A DNA stretch of 6,478 bases from a virus (taxonomy: Duplodnaviria > Heunggongvirae > Uroviricota > Caudoviricetes): IMG/VR virus record IMGVR_UViG_2534681912_000008; one strand, given 5' to 3'. The notes under the pieces are model-generated. The model saw nothing but the letters and a program-made list of their open reading frames with translations. It was not told the origin of the DNA and searched no databases. Positions 1-6,478 of this stretch are shown here, in pieces. The first letter of the stretch is position 1. Each line of letters opens with the position of its first letter. The translations under genes were made by a program, and so were the position numbers.

Positions 1-258
1 CGGGCTGTGGCGCTTATTGTTCGCCAGCAGCGGCTGAAATTAAGCCTGTCCGGAAGGCTGGCGATAAAGGTGATTGCAGAGCCACCGGATAAGCGCCGCC
101 GCGATCTGGACAATATCCTGAAGGCACCACTGGATGCGCTGACGCATGCCGGACTACTTATAGACGACGAGCAGTTTGATGAAATCAATATTGTGCGCGG
201 TCAGCTCGTTCCTGGTGGGCGGCTGGGGATAAAAATCACAGAACTGGAGTGCGCATGA
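1..258 (+). CDS. rusA: Holliday junction resolvase RusA, C-terminal ~85 codons (5' end lies upstream of the window)
   Basis: Frame 1 is open from base 1 to the TGA at 256-258. The translation (...PDKRRRDLDNILKAPLDALTHAGLLIDDEQF...GGRLGIKITELE) aligns with the C-terminal half of E. coli RusA, including the RRRDLDN acidic catalytic motif. The Met at position 7 is internal, not the start. Confidence 0.85.
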   Translation, partial: RAVALIVRQQRLKLSLSGRLAIKVIAEPPDKRRRDLDNILKAPLDALTHAGLLIDDEQFDEINIVRGQLVPGGRLGIKITELECA

Positions 259-944
259 ATAACCAGTATTTACAGTTTGTGCGTGAGCAGCTCATTATCG
301 CCACCGCTGATTTGAGTGGGGCAACAAAAGGTCAGCTTGAAGCCTGGCAGGAGAATGCCATGTTCGATACAGGGCGTTACAGGCGTAAAAAAATCCGGTA
401 CCGCGATGAAGTGACCGGAAAAATGATAACGCGGGATAATCCACCAATCCCGGGAAAACAATCGCTGGCGAAGGGGACGTCAATTCCTCTGGTCAGTCAG
501 GTTGCTTTTTCTACATCATCATGGCGGCGGGCTGTTTTGTCTCTTGAAGAACATCATAAAGCCTGGTTGTTGTGGTGTTACAGCGGAAATACTTGCTGGG
601 AGTATCAGATCGCGATAACGCAGTGGGCATGGACAGAATTTAAGACTCACTCTGGTACCAGGAAAATTGCAGGGAAGACACAGGAACGCCTGAAAAAATT
701 AATCTGGCTGGCTGCACAGGATGTCAGGAGATGGGTTATAGGACATGATATCTACCAGCAACAGGAGCTTGCCCGTCTGTGTGGGATTAAGCCTGACAAC
801 TGGAGCCACAATTATGTGAGCTACTGGCGTGAAATACTCGACATTTTTATGAACCTCGATACCGAATCTCTGATTTGCACTGTGAAAAGGAGATCTCAAC
901 AAAAAGCGGCATTTTTGCAGCGAGATATTGCAAAAGTCAATTAG
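255..944 (+). CDS. Putative late-gene antitermination protein Q (assignment mainly positional)
   Basis: A ~230-codon ORF lies immediately after rusA, and its stop at 942-944 overlaps the -35 of a strong promoter followed by an intrinsic terminator, the canonical Q-PR'-tR' arrangement. Likely start is the ATG at 255 (GGAG at 246-249, ATGA overlap with the rusA stop); the ORF track begins at the GTG at 249. No Q family motif was recognised unambiguously. Confidence 0.5.
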   Translation: MNNQYLQFVREQLIIATADLSGATKGQLEAWQENAMFDTGRYRRKKIRYRDEVTGKMITRDNPPIPGKQSLAKGTSIPLVSQVAFSTSSWRRAVLSLEEHHKAWLLWCYSGNTCWEYQIAITQWAWTEFKTHSGTRKIAGKTQERLKKLIWLAAQDVRRWVIGHDIYQQQELARLCGIKPDNWSHNYVSYWREILDIFMNLDTESLICTVKRRSQQKAAFLQRDIAKVN

Positions 945-976
945 ATAGCATATATTTTATGTAAATGTGATATATT
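928..976 (+). promoter_or_regulatory. PR'-like sigma70 late promoter with a second -10-like element just downstream (putative promoter-proximal pause/qut region)
   Basis: -35 TTGCAA at 928-933, a 17-bp spacer, and -10 TATATT at 951-956. A second TGaTATATT (extended -10-like) at 968-976 falls just downstream of the predicted start site, as expected for a sigma-dependent pause element used for Q loading. Confidence 0.5.
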
Positions 977-993
977 GCTGTAAAGTGTATAAA

Positions 994-1017
994 CCCGCTC
1001 AAATGTGCGGGTTTTTT
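994..1017 (+). terminator. tR'-like rho-independent terminator
   Basis: CCCGC at 994-998 pairs with GCGGG at 1007-1011 around an 8-nt loop, followed by TTTTTT at 1012-1017. It lies about 50 nt downstream of the predicted PR' start. Confidence 0.7.
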
Positions 1018-1090
1018 GCTTAACTCTGTGGACCTTTTTATCTGTAGTTGTAATATATGGATATTGTTACAATTTAGGTCGGTGAGCTTA

Positions 1091-1855
1091 ATGGAAGAAC
1101 AGCACGGTAATTACTTTATAAAACGAATTCAGTTGATTGGAAGAGGGGCATTTGGCTTTGTTGAACACGTTAAGGTTTACAACCTCAATAAAGGTGAATG
1201 CGGGGATTATGCTAGAAAGGTTTTAGCACCCGAAAAACCAGAGCTTTTGGCGCAAATAGAGCAGTTTAGAAGGCGTTTTAAAAGGGAGGTTGTGTATCAA
1301 TCACATTGCGTACATAGCAATATTGTTCCTATTTATTTGTGCGATTTGTTTGTTGAGAATCCATGGTTCATTATGGATAAAGCAGAATGTGATCTTGAGC
1401 ACGAAATAACGAACAACCTTCTTACAACAGATCAAAAAATTTCAATAGTGAAAATGGTATTAGATGGTGTAGCTTACATCCATGCCAAAGGCTATTTACA
1501 CAGAGATATAAAACCCTTTAATGTTTTGCGATTTAGCGACGGAACATACAAGGTGTCTGATTTTGGTCTGGTAAAAGATACGAATCCCGAAGGGGATACC
1601 ACTAAATTGACCGAGATCGGTACCCGTATGGGAAGTACAAGATATATGGCTCCCGAGATTTTATATAATGCAGAGTATTCAGTTAAGACTGATGTTTATG
1701 CTGTGGGACGGTTAATTGAAGACTTAAATTTAGATGATAAAAAAATAAAGCCTATCATAGCTAAGTGCACAAGGATGGATAAAGATGATAGATATCAGAC
1801 AATAGATGATGTGGCGTTTGATTTTGCGCATTCTTTTTTAAGGAGTGAGTCATGA
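1091..1855 (+). CDS. Hanks-type (eukaryotic-like) Ser/Thr protein kinase, catalytic domain only
   Basis: ATG at 1091 is preceded by GGTGAG at 1081-1086. The ~254-aa product carries the kinase subdomain motifs in order: Gly-rich loop IGRGAFGFV, the conserved Lys in YARKV, a Glu in FKREV, catalytic loop HRDIKPFN (Ser/Thr type), DFG in VSDFGL and APE in YMAPE. No transmembrane or sensor domain is evident. The TTG at 1016 used by the ORF track lies inside the terminator and is rejected as a start. Confidence 0.85.
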   Translation: MEEQHGNYFIKRIQLIGRGAFGFVEHVKVYNLNKGECGDYARKVLAPEKPELLAQIEQFRRRFKREVVYQSHCVHSNIVPIYLCDLFVENPWFIMDKAECDLEHEITNNLLTTDQKISIVKMVLDGVAYIHAKGYLHRDIKPFNVLRFSDGTYKVSDFGLVKDTNPEGDTTKLTEIGTRMGSTRYMAPEILYNAEYSVKTDVYAVGRLIEDLNLDDKKIKPIIAKCTRMDKDDRYQTIDDVAFDFAHSFLRSES

Positions 1856-2595
1856 TTCAGCTGATAGCGACTTCATCATTCTCGTATCCAAAAGAACCAG
1901 GTAGGGTCAACGAAGATTCATTGCTTCCTCCAAAAATTGTAGGAGACGGCATCTTATTTGCCGTAGCTGATGGTGTAGGTTCATACTCTGGTGCCAGTTA
2001 TGCTTCATCCATGGCAATCGCTGAACTTTCAGCATTGACAAGTTTATCTTTTGATGCAGTTCCGAATGTATTTGCTGAAGTTAAGCGAAAAGTTATGTCG
2101 TTAGCTGAAGTTAATGATGAGTTCGATAAAGCTGCTACTACACTTACCTTTTGTTATGTTTGTGATAGCGGAATTATTATTGGTCATATTGGTGATTGTC
2201 GCTTGTATTGCATTGGAGAAAAGAAAGCATATCAATTGACGAAGGACGATACCAGACATCAGATGTTAATTGATCAGAATATTTTTAAACCCAGAGATTT
2301 GAAGAATAAACCGGGAAAAAATATCTTAACGACTGCCATAGCCTCAAATGTTGATATGGAATACGACTGTGATTTTATCCCGTGGAAAGATTTGCCTGGT
2401 ATTAACGGGTTGTATCATCTGTGTATCATGTCTGATGGAGTTCATAACGTTTGGGAAAAACGCCCCAGATTTACATCAAATACTATGAGTAATAGTCAGA
2501 AGTTTTCTAATGGTATTTTGCGTCGTATAGAGAGAGCCGGACCTGATGATGACTTTTCTTTAGTAAGTATAATGGTGCGTGTGACGTCAGATTAG
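1852..2595 (+). CDS. PP2C (PPM-family) Ser/Thr protein phosphatase
   Basis: The start ATG overlaps the kinase stop (ATGA at 1852-1855), with AGGAG at 1838-1842. Metal-binding PPM motifs are present: FAVADGVGS, HIGDCRLY, MSDGV and C-terminal DDDFSLV. Confidence 0.8.
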   Translation: MIQLIATSSFSYPKEPGRVNEDSLLPPKIVGDGILFAVADGVGSYSGASYASSMAIAELSALTSLSFDAVPNVFAEVKRKVMSLAEVNDEFDKAATTLTFCYVCDSGIIIGHIGDCRLYCIGEKKAYQLTKDDTRHQMLIDQNIFKPRDLKNKPGKNILTTAIASNVDMEYDCDFIPWKDLPGINGLYHLCIMSDGVHNVWEKRPRFTSNTMSNSQKFSNGILRRIERAGPDDDFSLVSIMVRVTSD

Positions 2596-2666
2596 TTGTA
2601 TAAACCCAGTAGGGAATGCTAATTTCCCATACTACAGAGTAAAGAAAAACTTAATTTTAATGTGAA

Positions 2667-2692
2667 AAGGCTGCTATCAGGCGGCCTTTTTA
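2667..2692 (+). terminator. Rho-independent terminator closing the kinase-phosphatase cassette
   Basis: GGCTGC at 2669-2674 pairs with GCGGCC at 2681-2686 (one G-U pair) around a 6-nt loop, followed by TTTTT at 2687-2691. Confidence 0.6.
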
Positions 2693-2705
2693 TGTCTGAA
2701 AAGCT

Positions 2706-3032
2706 GTGCAGTACGTTAAACACGCTTGTGGTTGTGAATGCCGACTGCGGCGGTATTTTGGCGTGACAGCGCAGGTGCCGTATACCGATGTCTGGACGCA
2801 TAAACCGGTGCAGTTCTATCCCGGGAAACATCCGTGCGAAAAACCGGCAGAAATGCTGCAGCAGATAATCAGCGCAAGCAGTCGTCCGGGAGACCTGGTT
2901 GCAGATTTTTTTATGGGCTCAGGTTCAACGGTAAAAGCGGCACTGGCGCTCGGGCGTCGTGCGATTGGCGTTGAACTGGAGACCGGACGTTTTGAGCAGA
3001 CAGTCAGGGAAGTTCAGGATTTAATCGTTTGA
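2706..3032 (+). pseudogene. 5'-truncated DNA methyltransferase remnant (N6-adenine/N4-cytosine MTase family, C-terminal AdoMet-binding part only)
   Basis: The translation HPCEKPAEMLQQIISASSRPGDLVADFFMGSGSTVKAALALGRRAIGVE matches the C-terminal HP..KP and D.F.GSG.T motif region of beta-class DNA MTases. Only ~44 codons lie upstream of it, with no DPPY-type catalytic motif. The ORF starts at a GTG directly after an in-frame stop, so the N-terminal domain is missing. Confidence 0.6.
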
Positions 3033-3043
3033 AACGGATGAGA

Positions 3044-3072
3044 TTGCAGAATTAATTACGCACCATTATTAT
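3044..3072 (+). promoter_or_regulatory. Candidate sigma70 promoter for the tRNA cluster
   Basis: -35 TTGCAG at 3044-3049, a 17-bp spacer, and -10 TATTAT at 3067-3072, about 10 nt upstream of the first tRNA 5' end. Confidence 0.4.
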
Positions 3073-3081
3073 TCTGCTTCC

Positions 3082-3157
3082 GGCCCTTTAGCTCAGTGGT
3101 GAGAGCGAGCGACTCATAATCGCCAGGTCGCTGGTTCAAATCCAGCAAGGGCCACCA
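3082..3157 (+). tRNA. ileZ: tRNA with CAT anticodon, most likely tRNA-Ile2 (lysidine type) rather than tRNA-Met
   Basis: Manual cloverleaf: acceptor GGCCCTT pairs with AAGGGCC; D arm GCTC/GAGC; anticodon loop CTCATAA with CAT at 3115-3117; T loop TTCAAAT; encoded CCA at 3155-3157. It is closely similar to E. coli ileX. The symbol is assigned by synteny with the Stx-phage ileZ-argN-argO cluster. Confidence 0.85.
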
Positions 3158-3164
3158 TCACATA

Positions 3165-3241
3165 CCGCCATTAGCTCATCAGGAAAGAGCGCCAGCCTTC
3201 GAAGCTGGTTGCGCGGAGTTCGGGTCCCCGAAGGCGGTCCA
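3165..3241 (+). tRNA. argN: tRNA-Arg (anticodon TCG), somewhat degenerate
   Basis: Perfect anticodon arm CCAGC-CTTCGAA-GCTGG with TCG at 3199-3201, D arm GCTC/GAGC and an encoded CCA at 3239-3241. The acceptor stem has an A-A mismatch, the T stem an A-C mismatch, and the T loop TTCGGGT has G where the invariant A58 is expected. Confidence 0.6.
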
Positions 3242-3254
3242 TTATCTGTATCCT

Positions 3255-3331
3255 GCGTTGTTAGCTCAGCCGGACAGAGCAATTGCCTTCTAAGCAATCG
3301 GTCACTGGTTCGAATCCAGTACAACGCGCCA
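3255..3331 (+). tRNA. argO: tRNA-Arg (anticodon TCT, decodes AGA/AGG)
   Basis: Canonical cloverleaf: acceptor GCGTTGT pairs with ACAACGC; anticodon arm ATTGC-CTTCTAA-GCAAT; T arm ACTGG-TTCGAAT-CCAGT; discriminator G and encoded CCA at 3329-3331. Confidence 0.9.
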
Positions 3332-3346
3332 CACTTATTTTCCCTG

Positions 3347-3370
3347 GCTCGCTTTTGCGGGCTTTTTTTT
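3347..3370 (+). terminator. Rho-independent terminator after the tRNA cluster
   Basis: GCTCGC at 3347-3352 pairs with GCGGGC at 3357-3362 (one G-U pair) around a TTTT loop, followed by T8 at 3363-3370. Confidence 0.6.
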
Positions 3371-3590
3371 AAATGTCTCACAATTCAGGCGGTTGACTGT
3401 TGTCTGGTTTGCGGGGAGTTTGTTAAAAGAAACTGGCATGGTGAATCCCCCTGTGCGGAGGGGCAATCAGCGAGTAGGTATATGGGATAATCGCGGATTC
3501 AGGTGCTGGTACTGAATTCACCGGGAGGCACCCGGCACCATGCAATGGCACATAGCGCCACTCTCCAGCCCCTCTCCGGAGGGGCTTTTC
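3371..3590 (+). repeat. Direct-repeat unit A (diverged paralogue of unit B), non-coding, ends in an intrinsic terminator
   Basis: Shares collinear blocks with 3832-4078: CTCACAATTCAG, GTTGAC, TTTGTTAAAA, GCATGGTGAATCCCCCTG.GCGGAGGGGC, TCACCGGGAGGCACCCGGCACCATG and AGCCCCTCTCCGGAGGGGCTTT. The segments between the blocks are divergent or differ by indels. Confidence 0.7.
3568..3590 (+). terminator. Rho-independent terminator at the end of repeat unit A
   Basis: GCCCCTC at 3568-3574 pairs perfectly with GAGGGGC at 3579-3585 around a TCCG loop, followed by TTTT. Confidence 0.65.
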
Positions 3591-3779
3591 TGTGCCGGAT
3601 ACATCACAGTTTCTGGAACCTTAGGTACTACAGTATCAGTCAGGGTGCTATATTTTCAGATGTGATGAAAGCCTGTCAGCAGGCAGGGCGTATCGGAAAT
3701 GACCCAGTAGAGAAAACGTTGACTCAGATACCGGTGCTGAGTTACCGGGAAACCGGCATCACATGACCGCTATCCTTCC

Positions 3780-3808
3780 AGGCCCATCCGCTCCGGTGGG
3801 CCTTTTTA
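3780..3808 (+). terminator. Strong rho-independent terminator in the unique segment between the repeat units
   Basis: AGGCCCA at 3780-3786 pairs with TGGGCCT at 3797-3803, with further inner CCG/CGG pairing, followed by TTTTT. Confidence 0.65.
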
Positions 3809-3831
3809 CTGCAGAAAACAGGTTCCCCGTT

Positions 3832-4078
3832 AAATGCTATGTTGCTCACAATTCAGTAAGTTGACAGTTGCCTGTCAGACTGGGCATTTGTTAAAAAAAT
3901 TTCGCATGGTGAATCCCCCTGAGCGGAGGGGCGACTGGTGACGGTATAATCTCTGATTATCAAAACGAGAATGACGCGGGTTTAGTGGCACCGGGCTGAA
4001 CTCACCGGGAGGCACCCGGCACCATGTGCATGATGATACAGATACGCGGCTTTAGCCCCTCTCCGGAGGGGCTTTCTT
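3832..4078 (+). repeat. Direct-repeat unit B (diverged paralogue of unit A), non-coding, ends in an intrinsic terminator
   Basis: Same ordered conserved blocks as unit A, with a perfect TTGACA at 3860-3865 and a perfect TATAAT at 3945-3950. It carries about 25 extra nt in the central divergent segment. Confidence 0.7.
4055..4078 (+). terminator. Rho-independent terminator at the end of repeat unit B
   Basis: GCCCCTC at 4055-4061 pairs with GAGGGGC at 4066-4072 around a TCCG loop, followed by a T-rich run (TTTCTTAT). Confidence 0.6.
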
Positions 4079-4084
4079 ATGGAC

Positions 4085-4113
4085 AAAAAAAGCCCGCGCT
4101 GGGAGACGCGGGC
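4085..4113 (-). terminator. Candidate minus-strand rho-independent terminator, convergent with the unit B terminator
   Basis: GCCCGCG at 4092-4098 pairs with CGCGGGC at 4107-4113 around an 8-nt loop. The A7 run at 4085-4091 on the + strand becomes a U-tract after the hairpin on the minus strand. Confidence 0.45.
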
Positions 4114-4182
4114 GGCAAGGAATAAACAATAAAACGTGAAGTAATATTTCAGCTGGCGAATAATACCCCATAGTAATCACTC

Positions 4183-4204
4183 TGCGCAACTGCGCGGTCT
4201 TTTT
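4183..4204 (+). terminator. Candidate weak intrinsic terminator upstream of nanS-p
   Basis: TGCGC at 4183-4187 pairs with GCGCG at 4192-4196 around a 4-nt loop, followed by a T-rich run at 4198-4204. Confidence 0.35.
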
Positions 4205-4306
4205 CGAATTGCGGGCTGTAGTCTCCCTTCTGCCATTGTCCTGTAACTTCCGGACTTCAGCCTGCTCCTTATCTGACTCACAACATTATCCCGCCCGGGA
4301 GGATTC

Positions 4307-6160
4307 ATGGCATTTAAACACTATGACGTGGTCAGGGCGGCATCGCCGTCAGACCTTGCGAAACGACTGACACAAAAACTGAAGGAGGGCTGGCAGCCGT
4401 TTGGTAGTCCGGTGGCCATAACCCCTTATACCCTGATGCAGGCGATTGCAGCAGAAGGTGATGTGGTCGTCAGTGGTGCAACTGAGCCGGAGTGGTACTA
4501 CGTCATCGTACTGGCCGGGCAATCCAATGCCATGGCTTACGGTGAAGGGCTTCCGCTTCCGGATTCATACGATGCGCCCCATCCGCGCATTAAGCAACTG
4601 GCCCGTCGTAACACAGTGACTCCCGGTGGTGAAGTATGCGTATTTAACGACATCATTCCTGCTGACCATTGTCTGCATGATGTTCAGGATATGAGTACGA
4701 TTAACCATCCCCGGGCTGACCTGAGCAAAGGGCAGTACGGCTGTGTCGGACAGGGCTTACATATTGCCAAAAAACTGCTTCCGTATATCCCTAATAATGC
4801 GGGGATCCTGCTGGTACCATGCTGTCGTGGTGGTTCGGCATTCACCCAGGGCACGGAGGGGACATTCAGCGAGTCCACGGGAGCCAGTCAGGATTCGGCT
4901 CGCTGGGGAGTGGGTAAGCCGTTATATCAGGATCTGCTTTTCCGCACGAAGGCAGCATTGCAGAAAAACCCGAAAAACGTTTTGCTGGCGATATGCTGGA
5001 TGCAGGGGGAATTCGATATGACGAATGCCAGTTACGCCCAGCAGCCAGCAGCATTTCTTGCAATGGTACAGCAGTTCCGTGCTGACCTTGCCGGGCTGGC
5101 AGCGCAGTGTCACGGTGGAAGTCCGGCATCAGTCCCCTGGATTTGTGGCGACACGACATACGCGTGGAAACAAGAACACGGTACGCAATATGAAGTGGTA
5201 TATGGTGCATATAAAGGTAAAGAATCCCAGCAGATTTATTTTGTTCCCTTTATGACCGATGGTAGCGGAGTTAATACACCGACAAACAACCCGTCAGAAG
5301 ATCCTGATATTGTCGGGTCTGGTTATTACGGTTCGGCATCCCGAACGAACAAAAACTGGGTATCATCAAATCGCCCGACGCATTTCAGCTCATGGGCGCG
5401 TCGTGGCATTATTCCCGATCGTATGGCAACTGCTATTCTGAACGTAGCCGGTCGCACCTTAGCCTTCATTAGTGGTAAGGCACCGGAAATCAAACTCTCG
5501 CCCGGCGGCGACACGCCATCGGGGCCGTCTGAAGATGCATCCATACGCACAATCTCCCTGTTGCCGACAGCCGGAGACGCTGCTGCGCAGGGCTGGAGCA
5601 TTAAGAATGGCGGAATTCAGTTGTCAGATGGTGTATTTAAGATCACCAAGCAGAGCAATAAAGCCTGGTCCCTGACGCGCCCGGTGGATGACGCAGTCTC
5701 CCTGCTGACACGGGGTGGCAGACTGAGCTGTAAGTTTCGACTGTCAGGCGCACTGACCAACAATCAGTTCGGTCTGGGAATTTATCTGTATACCGATGTA
5801 GCGTTACCTGACGTCGTGGCGATGACCGGGACTGGTAACCCGTTCCTGATGTCGTTCTTCACCCAGACCACAGACGGCAAACTGAATCTGATGCATCACA
5901 AGAAAGCAGGAAACACAAAGTTGGGCGAGTTCGGGAATTACAGTAACGACTGGCAGACGCTGGAGCTGGTGTTCACCGCCGGCAGTGCCACGGTTACTCC
6001 GAAACTGAATGGAGTGGCTGGCCCGGCATTCCAGGTCATAAAAGACAGTCTGACACTGGGGCTGAATGCGCTGACGCTGACGGATATTACCAAAAATGCA
6101 GCGTATGGCGTTGAGATAGAAAGTCTGGTGCTGGAGATAAATGCACCGGCATCATCATAA
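4307..6160 (+). CDS. nanS: Prophage-type sialate O-acetylesterase (NanS-p-like): N-terminal DUF1737-like region, SGNH/SASA esterase domain, C-terminal beta-rich domain
   Basis: A 617-codon ORF with GGAGG at 4298-4302 before the ATG. The N-terminus MAFKHYDVV... and the GQSN catalytic-serine motif in VLAGQSNAMAYGEG match the NanS-p esterases encoded downstream of stx in Stx phages, recalled from memory. It is the dominant long ORF; all overlapping ORFs are rejected. Confidence 0.85.
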   Translation: MAFKHYDVVRAASPSDLAKRLTQKLKEGWQPFGSPVAITPYTLMQAIAAEGDVVVSGATEPEWYYVIVLAGQSNAMAYGEGLPLPDSYDAPHPRIKQLARRNTVTPGGEVCVFNDIIPADHCLHDVQDMSTINHPRADLSKGQYGCVGQGLHIAKKLLPYIPNNAGILLVPCCRGGSAFTQGTEGTFSESTGASQDSARWGVGKPLYQDLLFRTKAALQKNPKNVLLAICWMQGEFDMTNASYAQQPAAFLAMVQQFRADLAGLAAQCHGGSPASVPWICGDTTYAWKQEHGTQYEVVYGAYKGKESQQIYFVPFMTDGSGVNTPTNNPSEDPDIVGSGYYGSASRTNKNWVSSNRPTHFSSWARRGIIPDRMATAILNVAGRTLAFISGKAPEIKLSPGGDTPSGPSEDASIRTISLLPTAGDAAAQGWSIKNGGIQLSDGVFKITKQSNKAWSLTRPVDDAVSLLTRGGRLSCKFRLSGALTNNQFGLGIYLYTDVALPDVVAMTGTGNPFLMSFFTQTTDGKLNLMHHKKAGNTKLGEFGNYSNDWQTLELVFTAGSATVTPKLNGVAGPAFQVIKDSLTLGLNALTLTDITKNAAYGVEIESLVLEINAPASS

Positions 6161-6244
6161 AAAGTGAGCCAGCCAAATGGAAGGTATCGTTAAACTCACC
6201 GGTAGTGTCAGTGGGTCGTCTGAGATGCCTGCATGAGTTATCAG

Positions 6245-6276
6245 AGCCATCAGTACTTAACTGGTGGCTTTTTTTA
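6245..6276 (+). terminator. Rho-independent terminator after nanS-p
   Basis: AGCCATCAG at 6245-6253 pairs with CTGGTGGCT at 6261-6269 (9 bp, one G-U pair) around a 7-nt loop, followed by T6. Confidence 0.7.
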
Positions 6277-6310
6277 TTGTTGTCAGCTTCCGGATAACGG
6301 GAGACGGGGT

Positions 6311-6385
6311 ATGTACCAGATGGAAAAAATCACAACAGGTGTGTCATACACCACGTCAGCGGTGGGAACGGGCTACTGGTTCCTG
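6311..6385 (+). pseudogene. Holin gene (S21/EssD-like pinholin) 5' fragment, interrupted after about codon 25 by an IS element
   Basis: GGAGA at 6300-6304 precedes the ATG at 6311. The first 25 codons (MYQMEKITTGVSYTTSAVGTGYWFL) match the N-terminus of lambdoid-prophage holins as I recall them. From 6384 onward the sequence is an IS terminal repeat and the reading frame encodes no hydrophobic transmembrane segment. Confidence 0.6.
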
Positions 6386-6478
6386 AACCGCCCCGGGTTT
6401 CCTGGAGAGTGTTTTATCTGTGAACTCAGGCTGCCAGATCATCGTTTCCGATGGAAGCATAATAAGCTTTTTCTGCTT
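6384..6478 (-). mobile_element. Terminal end of an IS3-family insertion sequence, most likely IS629/IS1203-like; the element continues beyond the window
   Basis: The sequence begins with 5'-TG and reads TGAACCGCCCCGGGTTTCCTGGAGAGTG..., which I recognise as the IS629-type terminal inverted repeat. The minus strand at 6426-6478 encodes a transposase C-terminus. Orientation is with the transposase on the minus strand. Confidence 0.7.
6426..6478 (-). CDS. IS3-family transposase (OrfB) C-terminal fragment; the rest lies beyond the window end
   Basis: Minus-strand translation ...AEKAYYASIGNDDLAA ends at a stop whose complement is at 6426-6428. The frame is open to the window edge. Confidence 0.6.
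   Translation of the reverse strand, partial: AEKAYYASIGNDDLAA

Follow-up and report, generated by a model that had tools for sequence, protein, structure and literature searches.

Small RNA genes predicted at the toxin position of a late-regulatory segment from an stx-negative Escherichia coli lambdoid prophage

The stretch of DNA analysed here (6,478 nt; "the window") is very probably the late-regulatory "moron" segment of an stx-negative E. coli lambdoid prophage, with two cargo slots and a native block of small RNA (sRNA) genes. The gene order of the original prediction, comprising Q, a PR'-like promoter, a methylase (present as a remnant), an ileZ-argN-argO tRNA cluster, nanS-p and the start of a holin gene, was recovered, and its coordinates were right. 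The features of the window are as follows.

1-258, plus strand: 3' part of rusA, Holliday-junction resolvase (RefSeq annotation of the identical VR50 locus; ORF list)
255-944, plus strand: antiterminator Q (Pfam PF06323, 281.7 bits)
928-956, plus strand: predicted PR'-like sigma-70 promoter, TTGCAA-17-TATATT, overlapping the end of Q (consensus scan)
991-1020, plus strand: intrinsic terminator, the first tR'-like stop, directly 3' of PR' and 5' of the kinase cassette (terminator scan)
1091-1855, plus strand: Ser/Thr protein kinase, moron cargo, PD-T4-6/mad6-like (Pfam Pkinase, 1.5e-33)
1852-2595, plus strand: PP2C-family phosphatase, overlapping the kinase stop codon (Pfam PP2C_2, 3.9e-14; RefSeq)
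2668-2692, plus strand: ancestral tR' hairpin and T-run, now 3' of the cassette (fold -20.4 kcal/mol)
2745-3032, plus strand: remnant of a DNA methyltransferase gene, encoding only the C-terminal 95 aa (Pfam N6_N4_Mtase, 135-219 of the 221 profile positions)
3082-3157, plus strand: tRNA with CAT anticodon, ileZ type (tRNA-Ile in PGAP; ARAGORN; Rfam 72.5 bits; 76/76 against Sakai Sp5 ileZ2)
3165-3241, plus strand: tRNA-Arg (TCG), argN type (ARAGORN; 70/77 against Sakai Sp5 argN2)
3255-3331, plus strand: tRNA-Arg (TCT), argO type (ARAGORN; 76/77 against Sakai Sp5 argO2)
3346-3371, plus strand: terminator ending the tRNA cluster (terminator scan)
3370-3377, no strand: equivalent of the stxAB insertion site, between 3373 and 3374 (alignment to Stx2_95 and Sakai Sp5)
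3407-3597, plus strand: STnc100 sRNA gene, copy 1 (Rfam RF02076, 136.3 bits)
3636-3809, plus strand: diverged STnc100-like paralog with its own terminator at 3780-3803 (RF02076, 30.1 bits)
3875-4084, plus strand: STnc100 sRNA gene, copy 2 (RF02076, 165.4 bits)
4085-4152, minus strand: convergent short RNA candidate with terminator 4113-4092 and T-run, in the AsxR slot of Sp5 (minus-strand terminator scan)
4307-6160, plus strand: predicted nanS-p type sialate O-acetylesterase (Pfam DUF1737, SASA and DUF6645)
6244-6276, plus strand: terminator 3' of nanS-p (fold -17.0 kcal/mol, T-run)
6311-6383, plus strand: class II holin, first 24 codons (MYQMEK...), truncated (same start base as the RefSeq VR50 holin; translation)
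6384-6478, no strand: end of an IS3-family element (IS629/IS1203 group) in the holin gene, beginning with TGAACCGCCCCGGG at 6384

Positions 1-6385 are 100% identical to DNA of non-STEC E. coli, e.g. VR50, ML35 and BEN2908. The surroundings of the locus in those identical strains are those of a lambdoid prophage (dicB, replication genes, terminase and capsid), and further downstream of the identical locus in VR50 the RefSeq annotation lists holin, lysozyme and Rz. Judged by its sequence, the segment appears to have the makeup of a lambdoid late-regulatory region, with Q followed by a predicted promoter and an intrinsic terminator, and with lysis genes as found in VR50. Published work on lambdoid prophages, stx-positive and stx-negative alike, already describes this succession of Q, PR', moron cargo, tRNAs, convergent sRNAs, esterase and lysis genes. 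Because the layout is published and the exact sequence is present in many sequenced non-STEC strains, the segment carries little weight as a discovery.

The antiterminator gene is 88% identical in nucleotide sequence to Q of an stx-negative prophage in strain CE10 (O7:K1, NC_017646, 1466-1475 kb). Within the phage collection the best match reaches 77%, identity to Q of phage 434 is 63%, and this type of Q is seen there only in stx-negative phages, or in stx-negative partners inside composite records. This PF06323-type protein is not an Stx-phage Q; the Q of Stx2 phages is from a different family. Q would act on the PR'-like promoter that overlaps the 3' end of the Q gene, and the element at 928-956 would have the role of late promoter. 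The PR'-like region is shared with CE10 as far as window position 978. The terminator at 991-1020 has a fold of -14.7 kcal/mol, and the short RNA from PR' (58 nt) has a z-score of -3.4. The hairpin at 2668-2692 is homologous to the post-Q terminators of CE10 (L006 2503-2531) and Stx2_95 (L003 3492-3516). Transcripts escaping the tR' terminators would extend across the accessory cargo into nanS-p and the lysis genes.

The first cargo slot would lie between PR' and the ancestral tR', with the low-GC kinase and PP2C phosphatase cassette as its occupant. The kinase gene has a GC content of about 37%, compared with about 52% in the flanks. The boundaries of the cassette are set by comparison with CE10, and the ancestral tR' lies 3' of it. 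The CE10 prophage is 99.6% identical to the window over 2745-6385, shares the type of Q and has an identical 975-bp sRNA interval, whereas it carries a 66-aa ORF and an intact 1050-nt methylase gene in place of the kinase/PP2C pair, and its holin is intact. In a CE10-type ancestor, the cassette would have taken the place of the 66-aa ORF together with the 5'-proximal two-thirds of the methylase gene. The "methylase" of the predicted order is correct in position but is only a 95-aa C-terminal remnant by Pfam, annotated in RefSeq as a pseudogene without its N-terminus. Against PADLOC models the kinase reaches 6e-40 for mad6 and 1e-34 for PD-T4-6, with the match covering the kinase domain only. 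It resembles these anti-phage defence kinases in that domain and in its location in a prophage accessory slot, but it is a shorter protein of 254 aa that comprises the kinase domain alone and has a PP2C phosphatase as its partner. Only 50 of 5,426 complete genomes carry the cassette, and among 50,697 phage records no DNA match to it was found except for the tR' remnant. The cassette was originally placed in the cargo position behind PR'; it does adjoin the PR'-like promoter, but this slot differs from that of stx, which follows the tRNA terminator.

The second slot would run from the terminator of the tRNA cluster to the first sRNA module, at the site that holds stxAB in Stx2 phages and is unoccupied here. 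The three tRNAs have the anticodons CAT, TCG and TCT in the order of ileZ-argN-argO, and the terminator at 3346-3371 is kept in Stx2_95 and Sp5, immediately 5' of stx2A. Window positions 2745-3369 align to Stx2_95 (L003 4749-5374), and the alignment resumes at window 3374 with L003 6710 onward; the intervening L003 5375-6709, with stx2A and stx2B, has no counterpart in the window. The 1.33-kb stxAB cassette of Stx2 phages is thus a clean indel here, and comparison with Sakai Sp5 agrees. Stx2 phages (Sp5/933W type; Stx2_95, LC567838; phage 86, AB255436) have the same order after Q up to the class II holin, i.e. (methylase), ileZ-argN-argO, terminator, stxAB, STnc100, a convergent short RNA, nanS-p and class II holin. 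The homology to Stx-phage relatives that had been expected holds for the 3' end of the methylase, the tRNAs, STnc100, nanS-p and the start of the holin, but not for Q. Compared with Stx2 phages, the window has no stxAB, a Q of another family, a truncated methylase and a kinase/PP2C cassette between PR' and tR'. It also has three STnc100-type elements, whereas Stx2 phages have one, directly 3' of stxB, and the RNA in its AsxR slot is not AsxR.

As originally predicted, the 975-bp interval between the tRNAs and nanS-p (3332-4306) holds no ORF resembling stxA or stxB by tblastn, blastn or six-frame Pfam search, and no degraded stx remnant was found in it. An Stx-converting phage has stxA and stxB in the stretch from the late promoter region to the lysis genes, and the segment lacks both genes there. 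Searches of the window by tblastn with the A and B subunits of Stx1 and Stx2 returned nothing except one weak minus-strand match to Stx2A, with StxB and Stx1B giving no match at all. The stx1 and stx2 cassettes gave only chance matches of 10-12 nt by blastn (word size 7), and no RIP or SLT_beta domain was found by Pfam in six frames of 3332-4306, even at E<=10. The weak match pairs Stx2A residues 55-103 with minus-strand positions 4060-3911 of the window, at 26.9 bits and 19/53 identities, and includes 7 gap positions and an in-frame stop. It outscored 200 of 200 dinucleotide-shuffled windows, while 2 of 300 shuffled StxA sequences reached its score. It lies antisense within STnc100 copy 2, has a comparable counterpart in STnc100 of the stx-negative phage phi296, and was rejected as an stx remnant.

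Previously, the segment was described as an stx-negative relative, or a derivative that lost or never gained the toxin. The first description holds, but the empty slot says little on loss. Among 5,426 complete genomes, 1,024 have the stx-less argO-to-STnc100 junction, the E. coli type strain included, 599 have an argO-to-stx2A junction and 352 have an identical 975-bp interval. The unoccupied toxin slot is the commoner state at this junction, and since stx-less junctions outnumber those with stx2, absence of stx is what is expected by default and is no sign that the toxin was lost. It is unlikely that the prophage descends from an Stx-converting phage from which stxAB was lost by a precise short-repeat deletion or by recombination with an stx-less relative. 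Both flanks are homologous to Stx phages, and stx is known to be lost in some cases (PMC8534868). Stx2_95 and Sp5 also have ATCTG at both cassette edges (TATATCTG followed by CGCC, and TAATCTGTG followed by TCACAA), where the window has a single TAAATGTC followed by TCACAA; a deletion through microhomology would leave a similar sequence. However, the 5-nt repeat could be chance, none of the tests recovered a remnant, and both the 1,024 genomes with the same junction and the stx-negative distribution of this type of Q argue against loss. Identity to Stx2 phages is only 90-91% on the left flank (the 3' end of the methylase plus the tRNAs, compared with Stx2_95 and Sp5) and 70-78% just right of the junction, which argues against a recent stx-bearing ancestor. 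A clean indel cannot by itself decide between gain and loss, as recombination with an stx-less phage would wipe all traces; that the prophage lineage never carried stx is favoured, though not proven.

The interval itself had been considered to contain only repeats and terminators. Instead, two STnc100 genes lie in it together with a third, diverged paralog and a candidate for a convergent short RNA. It would be the sRNA block native to this family of phages, in which STnc100, the paralog and STnc100 on the plus strand are followed by the convergent RNA. Membership in STnc100 was defined as a score equal to or above the RF02076 gathering score (47 bits) across the full model. Copies 1 and 2 both pass, each across model positions 1-206, with helices and terminators intact. 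The module of copy 1 begins at the TCACAATTCAG box at 3377, and copy 2 is homologous to the STnc100 found directly 3' of stxB in Stx2_95, phage 86 and Sp5. A sigma-70 scan of the copies found a conserved TTGAC(A/T) box only, without a good -10 element, and their MFE z-scores are modest (-1.5 and -2.2). The STnc100 homolog EcOnc27/sRNA103 is bound by Hfq. By analogy with these and with PasD, which are Hfq-bound sRNAs expressed in lysogens, the most likely role of the predicted STnc100 copies is to regulate host genes by base pairing.

The middle element (3636-3809) fails the RF02076 gathering score and is found at E=1.7e-4 in a local search. All five helices can form, four of the eight pairs in the closing helix (3660-3667/3757-3764) are changed on both sides, and the STnc100-like fold is at -58.7 kcal/mol against an MFE of -58.8 kcal/mol. 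The element thus seems to behave like a member of STnc100, yet it lies outside the family by the curated threshold. It is present in 673 of the 5,426 genomes, and one GTDB scan for distant relatives found only E. albertii, with the already known second allele. It is very unlikely that the interval is inert recombination debris, i.e. functionless duplicated junk from mosaic exchange between prophages. In favour of debris, the STnc100 copies share only about 70-80% of their sequence, relatives differ from one another in a mosaic pattern across the region, and IS elements insert into this prophage in other strains. However, both copies fit the full-length model with intact helices and terminators, their homologs are abundant RNAs bound by Hfq, the three-element array is maintained as two allelic forms in the 673 genomes and E. 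albertii, and a 45-nt stretch of the middle element, at 3686-3730, is invariant between alleles that are elsewhere 85% identical.

A coding role for the interval is very improbable. The candidates are YmjE-like ORFs antisense to STnc100 (3875-4015 and 3423-3551, minus strand) and a 33-aa ORF at 3664-3765. In VR50, CE10 and N25, the PGAP annotation shows part of a "hypothetical protein" opposite copy 1, on the minus strand, and the ORF antisense to copy 2 has a YmjE-like Pfam score of 14 bits (E=0.052). That score is far under the 27-bit cut-off, the ORF antisense to copy 1 has no match and PGAP labels the antisense ORFs incomplete pseudogenes, whereas the STnc100 covariance-model scores of 136-165 bits contain base-pair terms. 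The 33-aa ORF has no Shine-Dalgarno sequence, and its alleles differ by 5 amino-acid versus 2 synonymous codon changes. The small-protein reading was rejected on these sub-threshold scores and the lack of a coding signature.

The convergent RNA candidate has a fold z-score of -3.6 and is identical at 49 of 52 positions to an EPEC RIL-seq candidate (E2348C_1409.E2348C_1408.IGR); its 5' end is a presumed one. AsxR (RF02703) and AgvB (RF02702) were rejected as its identity, with no Rfam match at E<=10 in 3332-4330; AsxR of Sakai Sp5, the positive control in the same slot and orientation, scored 88 bits. Tree et al. (2014; PMC4104026) described moron coding sequences 3' of PR', followed by convergent sRNAs, for Sp5 as well as seven further prophages of Sakai. 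As in the window, a sense sRNA (EcOnc27, which is STnc100) and a convergent short RNA lie there 5' of a conserved esterase ORF, whereas the sense side of the window is a three-member tandem array and its convergent RNA is of another sequence family. PasD is related to STnc100 and is also located 5' of an esterase (Pearl Mizrahi 2021; Zhu, Shabalina and Storz 2026 preprint). PasD1 and PasD2 of EPEC E2348/69 lie directly 5' of a prophage sialate esterase and have the 5' GCAUGGUGAAUCC and a closing-helix arm in common with STnc100, but the window copies are canonical STnc100 without the PasD seed region and terminator. Identity of the repeats with PasD was rejected, as only the first 26-39 nt align by blastn to the 172-nt PasD2 of E2348/69.

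Downstream of the sRNA block, the esterase has the domain order expected of a predicted nanS-p product, with SASA between an N-terminal DUF1737 and a C-terminal domain (DUF6645). Window 4483-6385 is 96% identical in nucleotide sequence to the orf3 region of Stx2 phage 86, and PasA and PasC had no match between esterase and holin. The holin gene that was predicted to close the order does start at 6311, but the end of an IS3-family element breaks into it at 6384. This element end is 100% identical to an IS3-family end in CE10 and 99% identical to the Sakai IS1203 end. The exact holin::IS junction is absent from the complete-genome set, in which the best single-piece match is 94%. Since the element interrupts the holin gene, the prophage is probably lysis-defective in its source strain.

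The arrangement is ordinary, because the "empty" toxin slot carries small regulatory RNA genes common to toxin phages. Tentatively, and with some doubt, the sRNA array at the toxin slot may be diversifying, with its middle member an unrecognised third lineage of the STnc100/PasD superfamily whose own seed would be the invariant 45-nt stretch, and the kinase/PP2C pair, which two terminators bracket between PR' and tR', may be a prophage defence or host-control moron. The late region has two separate cargo slots. The tRNA-to-nanS-p interval should not be called empty, as it contains predicted sRNA genes of the Hfq type, which annotation pipelines skip or mislabel as pseudogenes.

The original prediction of an Stx-phage-like gene order with an empty toxin position holds as an observation, and its interpretation is mostly correct though incomplete: stx is absent but its slot is not empty, the methylase and holin genes are broken, and Q is not of the Stx-phage type. 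ORF listing, ARAGORN and base composition support the layout. Pfam searches identify Q (PF06323, 282 bits), the kinase (Pkinase) and phosphatase (PP2C_2) as predicted, and an esterase with DUF1737, SASA and DUF6645 domains, the architecture of nanS-p, which is known from non-Stx prophages too (PMC10462455). The methylase matches N6_N4_Mtase, but only profile positions 135-219 of 221 are present; it is a C-terminal 95-aa remnant and a pseudogene according to RefSeq. A candidate promoter of the tRNA cluster's own lies at 3044-3072 (TTGCAG-17-TATTAT), 9 nt ahead of the first tRNA and under the scan's -35 threshold. The sequence is already known: among 5,426 complete E. coli genomes searched by megablast, about 20 non-STEC strains, including VR50, ML35, BEN2908, DLI.6n and FDAARGOS_1249, carry window 1-6385 at ~100% identity. 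RefSeq annotation places the VR50 copy within a lambdoid prophage, with dicB/ydfABC, cI/cro-like genes, replication genes and rusA upstream and holin, lysozyme, Rz, terminase, portal and capsid genes downstream.

Stx-converting phages are the nearest annotated phages to the window, and the methylase 3' end, tRNAs, STnc100, nanS-p and holin start are homologous to their counterparts. In local mapping against the Stx2a phage Stx2_95 (LC567838), window 2745-3369, spanning the methylase 3' end, three tRNAs and a terminator, aligns at 91% with locus positions 4749-5374, and window 3374 onward aligns with 6710 onward; the 1,335 bp of Stx2_95 holding stx2A and stx2B have no counterpart in the window. 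The break points against Sakai Sp5 are the same, and in Stx2 phage 86 and one Stx1a phage homology to window 3846 onward begins 45-54 nt past the stxB stop codon. These break points define the toxin cassette as a clean indel, bounded by the tRNA-cluster terminator (3346-3371) and by a conserved TCACAATTCAG box opening the next module.

The predicted absence of the toxin extends to degraded remnants in 3332-4306. Blastn (word size 7) with both stx cassettes gave only chance matches of 10-12 nt, six-frame translation of the interval contains no RIP or SLT_beta domain in Pfam at E<=10, and tblastn (word size 2) with Stx2A, Stx2B, Stx1A and Stx1B found no remnant and one weak minus-strand match. 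The latter pairs Stx2A residues 55-103 with window 4060-3911 (26.9 bits, 19/53 identities) and includes gaps and an in-frame stop. It outscored 200/200 dinucleotide-shuffled windows; 2 of 300 shuffled StxA sequences attained the same score against the real window. The StxA-like translation (3911-4060, minus strand) runs antisense inside a conserved sRNA gene, and a comparable match exists in the same sRNA of the stx-negative phage phi296. A toxin remnant was ruled out on the shuffled-StxA controls, the antisense position and the phi296 match, and the similarity is probably due to chance.

The favoured reading is that this backbone never gained stx, because no remnant is found, the flanks are diverged, the nearest relative lacks stx and Q is of a type found in stx-negative phages. 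Identity to Stx2 phages is 90-91% in the left flank and 70-78% just right of the junction. The nearest relative, the prophage of E. coli O7:K1 strain CE10, is 99.6% identical over 2745-6385 and likewise stx-less. In the phage collection, this Q type occurs only in stx-negative phages, or in stx-negative partners within composite records; the best match is the Q of Escherichia phage vB_EcoS-689R5 (77%), with 76% for the PPompW type and 63% for phage 434. Nevertheless, loss of stx by microhomology deletion or recombinational replacement would be expected to yield the same product, and absence from the start is therefore not proven. In Stx2_95 and Sakai Sp5 the stx2 cassette has the pentamer ATCTG at each end (TATATCTG and TAATCTGTG), whereas the window has a single TAAATGTC; it is possibly microhomology from insertion or deletion of the cassette. 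The edges are as follows.

Stx2_95 locus, 5368-5376 and 6703-6713: ATCTG cassette edges
Sakai Sp5 locus, 4555-4562 and 5884-5893: ATCTG cassette edges

The toxin-free junction is widespread. Of 5,426 complete genomes, 1,024, among them the type strain of E. coli, cover at least 80% of a 216-nt probe comprising argO, the terminator and the STnc100 start; 352 cover the entire interval in the form seen in the window. For the corresponding probe from argO to stx2A the number is 599, and O157:H7 strains carry stx-less, single-STnc100 versions in their other prophages. An unoccupied slot is thus the more common condition.

The toxin position was described as empty, which is correct for the toxin and not for the interval, where Rfam and related searches locate sRNA genes.

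3407-3597: STnc100 (RF02076) copy 1, full-length, 136 bits in Rfam
3636-3809: middle element, STnc100-like, full-model match at a sub-threshold 30 bits
3875-4084: STnc100 (RF02076) copy 2, full-length, 165 bits in Rfam
4152-4085, minus strand: convergent short RNA candidate, about these limits, with terminator 4113-4092 and fold z=-3.6

The gathering score of RF02076 is 47, and the middle element has E=0.0011 in a search of the whole window and 1.7e-4 in a search of the interval. A terminator scan found that each of the three STnc100-type elements ends in its own terminator. The closing helix of the middle element is AUGUGAUG/CAUCACAU (3660-3667/3757-3764) versus GCAUGGUG/CACCAUGC in STnc100, with both sides changed in 4 of 8 pairs. 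Its three inner hairpins and terminator can all form, and imposing an STnc100-like fold carries no cost (-58.7 versus an MFE of -58.8 kcal/mol). The family architecture is retained. The element is present, as two alleles (>=99% and 85.5% identity), in 673 of 5,426 genomes; the second allele is found in strain 51008369SK1 and E. albertii, also between two STnc100 copies. A 45-nt stretch (about 3686-3730) in its predicted unpaired centre is invariant between alleles while the stems vary, a pattern expected of a seed region, and may be a seed. Antisense to the STnc100 copies, on the minus strand at 3423-3551 and 3875-4015, PGAP calls partial "hypothetical protein" pseudogenes in several genomes; the second of these ORFs, over copy 2, gives a YmjE-like Pfam hit of 14 bits, under the cut-off of 27.

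STnc100 has been linked to PasD, located directly upstream of the prophage esterase (Zhu, Shabalina and Storz, 2026 preprint). Similarity of the window copies to PasD2 of E2348/69 is confined to the 5' GCAUGGUGAAUCC and the closing arm; identification as PasD was therefore ruled out and the copies are STnc100-type. A conserved box, CTCACAATTCAG, lies at 3377-3387 and 3845-3855, ahead of a TTGAC(A/T) hexamer in both STnc100 modules, and in Stx phages it marks the exact right-hand limit of the toxin cassette. The motif published as the target of the PasD seed is likewise CUCACA, possibly by coincidence.

The convergent candidate is closed by a strong minus-strand terminator (4113-4092) directly after STnc100 copy 2. 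In Sakai Sp5, AsxR (88 bits in Rfam) has the same slot and orientation, abutting STnc100 (208 bits). The candidate itself matched no Rfam family, and identification as AsxR or AgvB was rejected; it is identical at 49 of 52 positions to the EPEC Hfq RIL-seq sRNA candidate E2348C_1409.E2348C_1408.IGR.

The kinase/PP2C cassette occupies window 979-2744, limits set by comparison with CE10, where the tR' region, an ORF of 66 aa and the methylase gene's first 762 nt stand in its place. Homology to CE10 past Q extends to 978 and spans the PR'-like promoter, and two intrinsic terminators bracket the genes.

928-956: predicted PR'-like promoter, TTGCAA-17-TATATT
991-1020: intrinsic terminator opening the cassette
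2668-2692: hairpin after the kinase/PP2C genes, a homologue of the terminator that follows Q in CE10 and Stx2_95

These limits, the homology through PR' and the terminator positions place the cargo directly behind PR', as predicted, but in a slot separate from that of stx. The cassette has a low GC content (~37% versus ~52% in the flanks), is present in just 50 of 5,426 genomes and is lacking from 50,697 phage records.

The predicted holin gene is present only at its start. An IS3-family (IS629/IS1203-group) element, whose first bases at 6384 are TGAACCGCCCCGGG, interrupts a class II holin gene after codon 24, and the last 95 nt (6384-6478) are the end of this element rather than holin, being 100% identical to an IS3-family element end in CE10 and 99% to the Sakai IS1203 end. 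The exact junction occurs in none of the 5,426 complete E. coli genomes. Since the element cuts the holin gene, the source strain's prophage is probably lysis-defective. The same element lies in the sRNA interval of strain 118UI (locus 6545-7758) and in rusA of N25 (locus 2543-3756), and these differing sites indicate repeated IS insertions into the prophage.

According to Tree et al. (2014, PMC4104026), the stretch that follows the Q-antiterminated PR' accommodates morons and bears convergent sRNA genes; they describe this for Sp5, in which Stx2 is followed by EcOnc02/AsxR and EcOnc27, and for seven further Sakai prophages. EcOnc27, which is sRNA103 in EDL933, is Hfq-bound and coincides in part with the STnc100 prediction after stx2B; STnc100 lies 75 nt past stx2B in other STEC strains. 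All features of the window match this published account of moron sites in lambdoid late regions, and the arrangement is ordinary and already known. Modestly new are the STnc100-type array of three members, whose diverged middle paralog is missed at Rfam's threshold, and the rare kinase/PP2C cassette, whose kinase matches mad6 (6e-40) and PD-T4-6 (1e-34) in PADLOC and for which a role in defence or host control is plausible.
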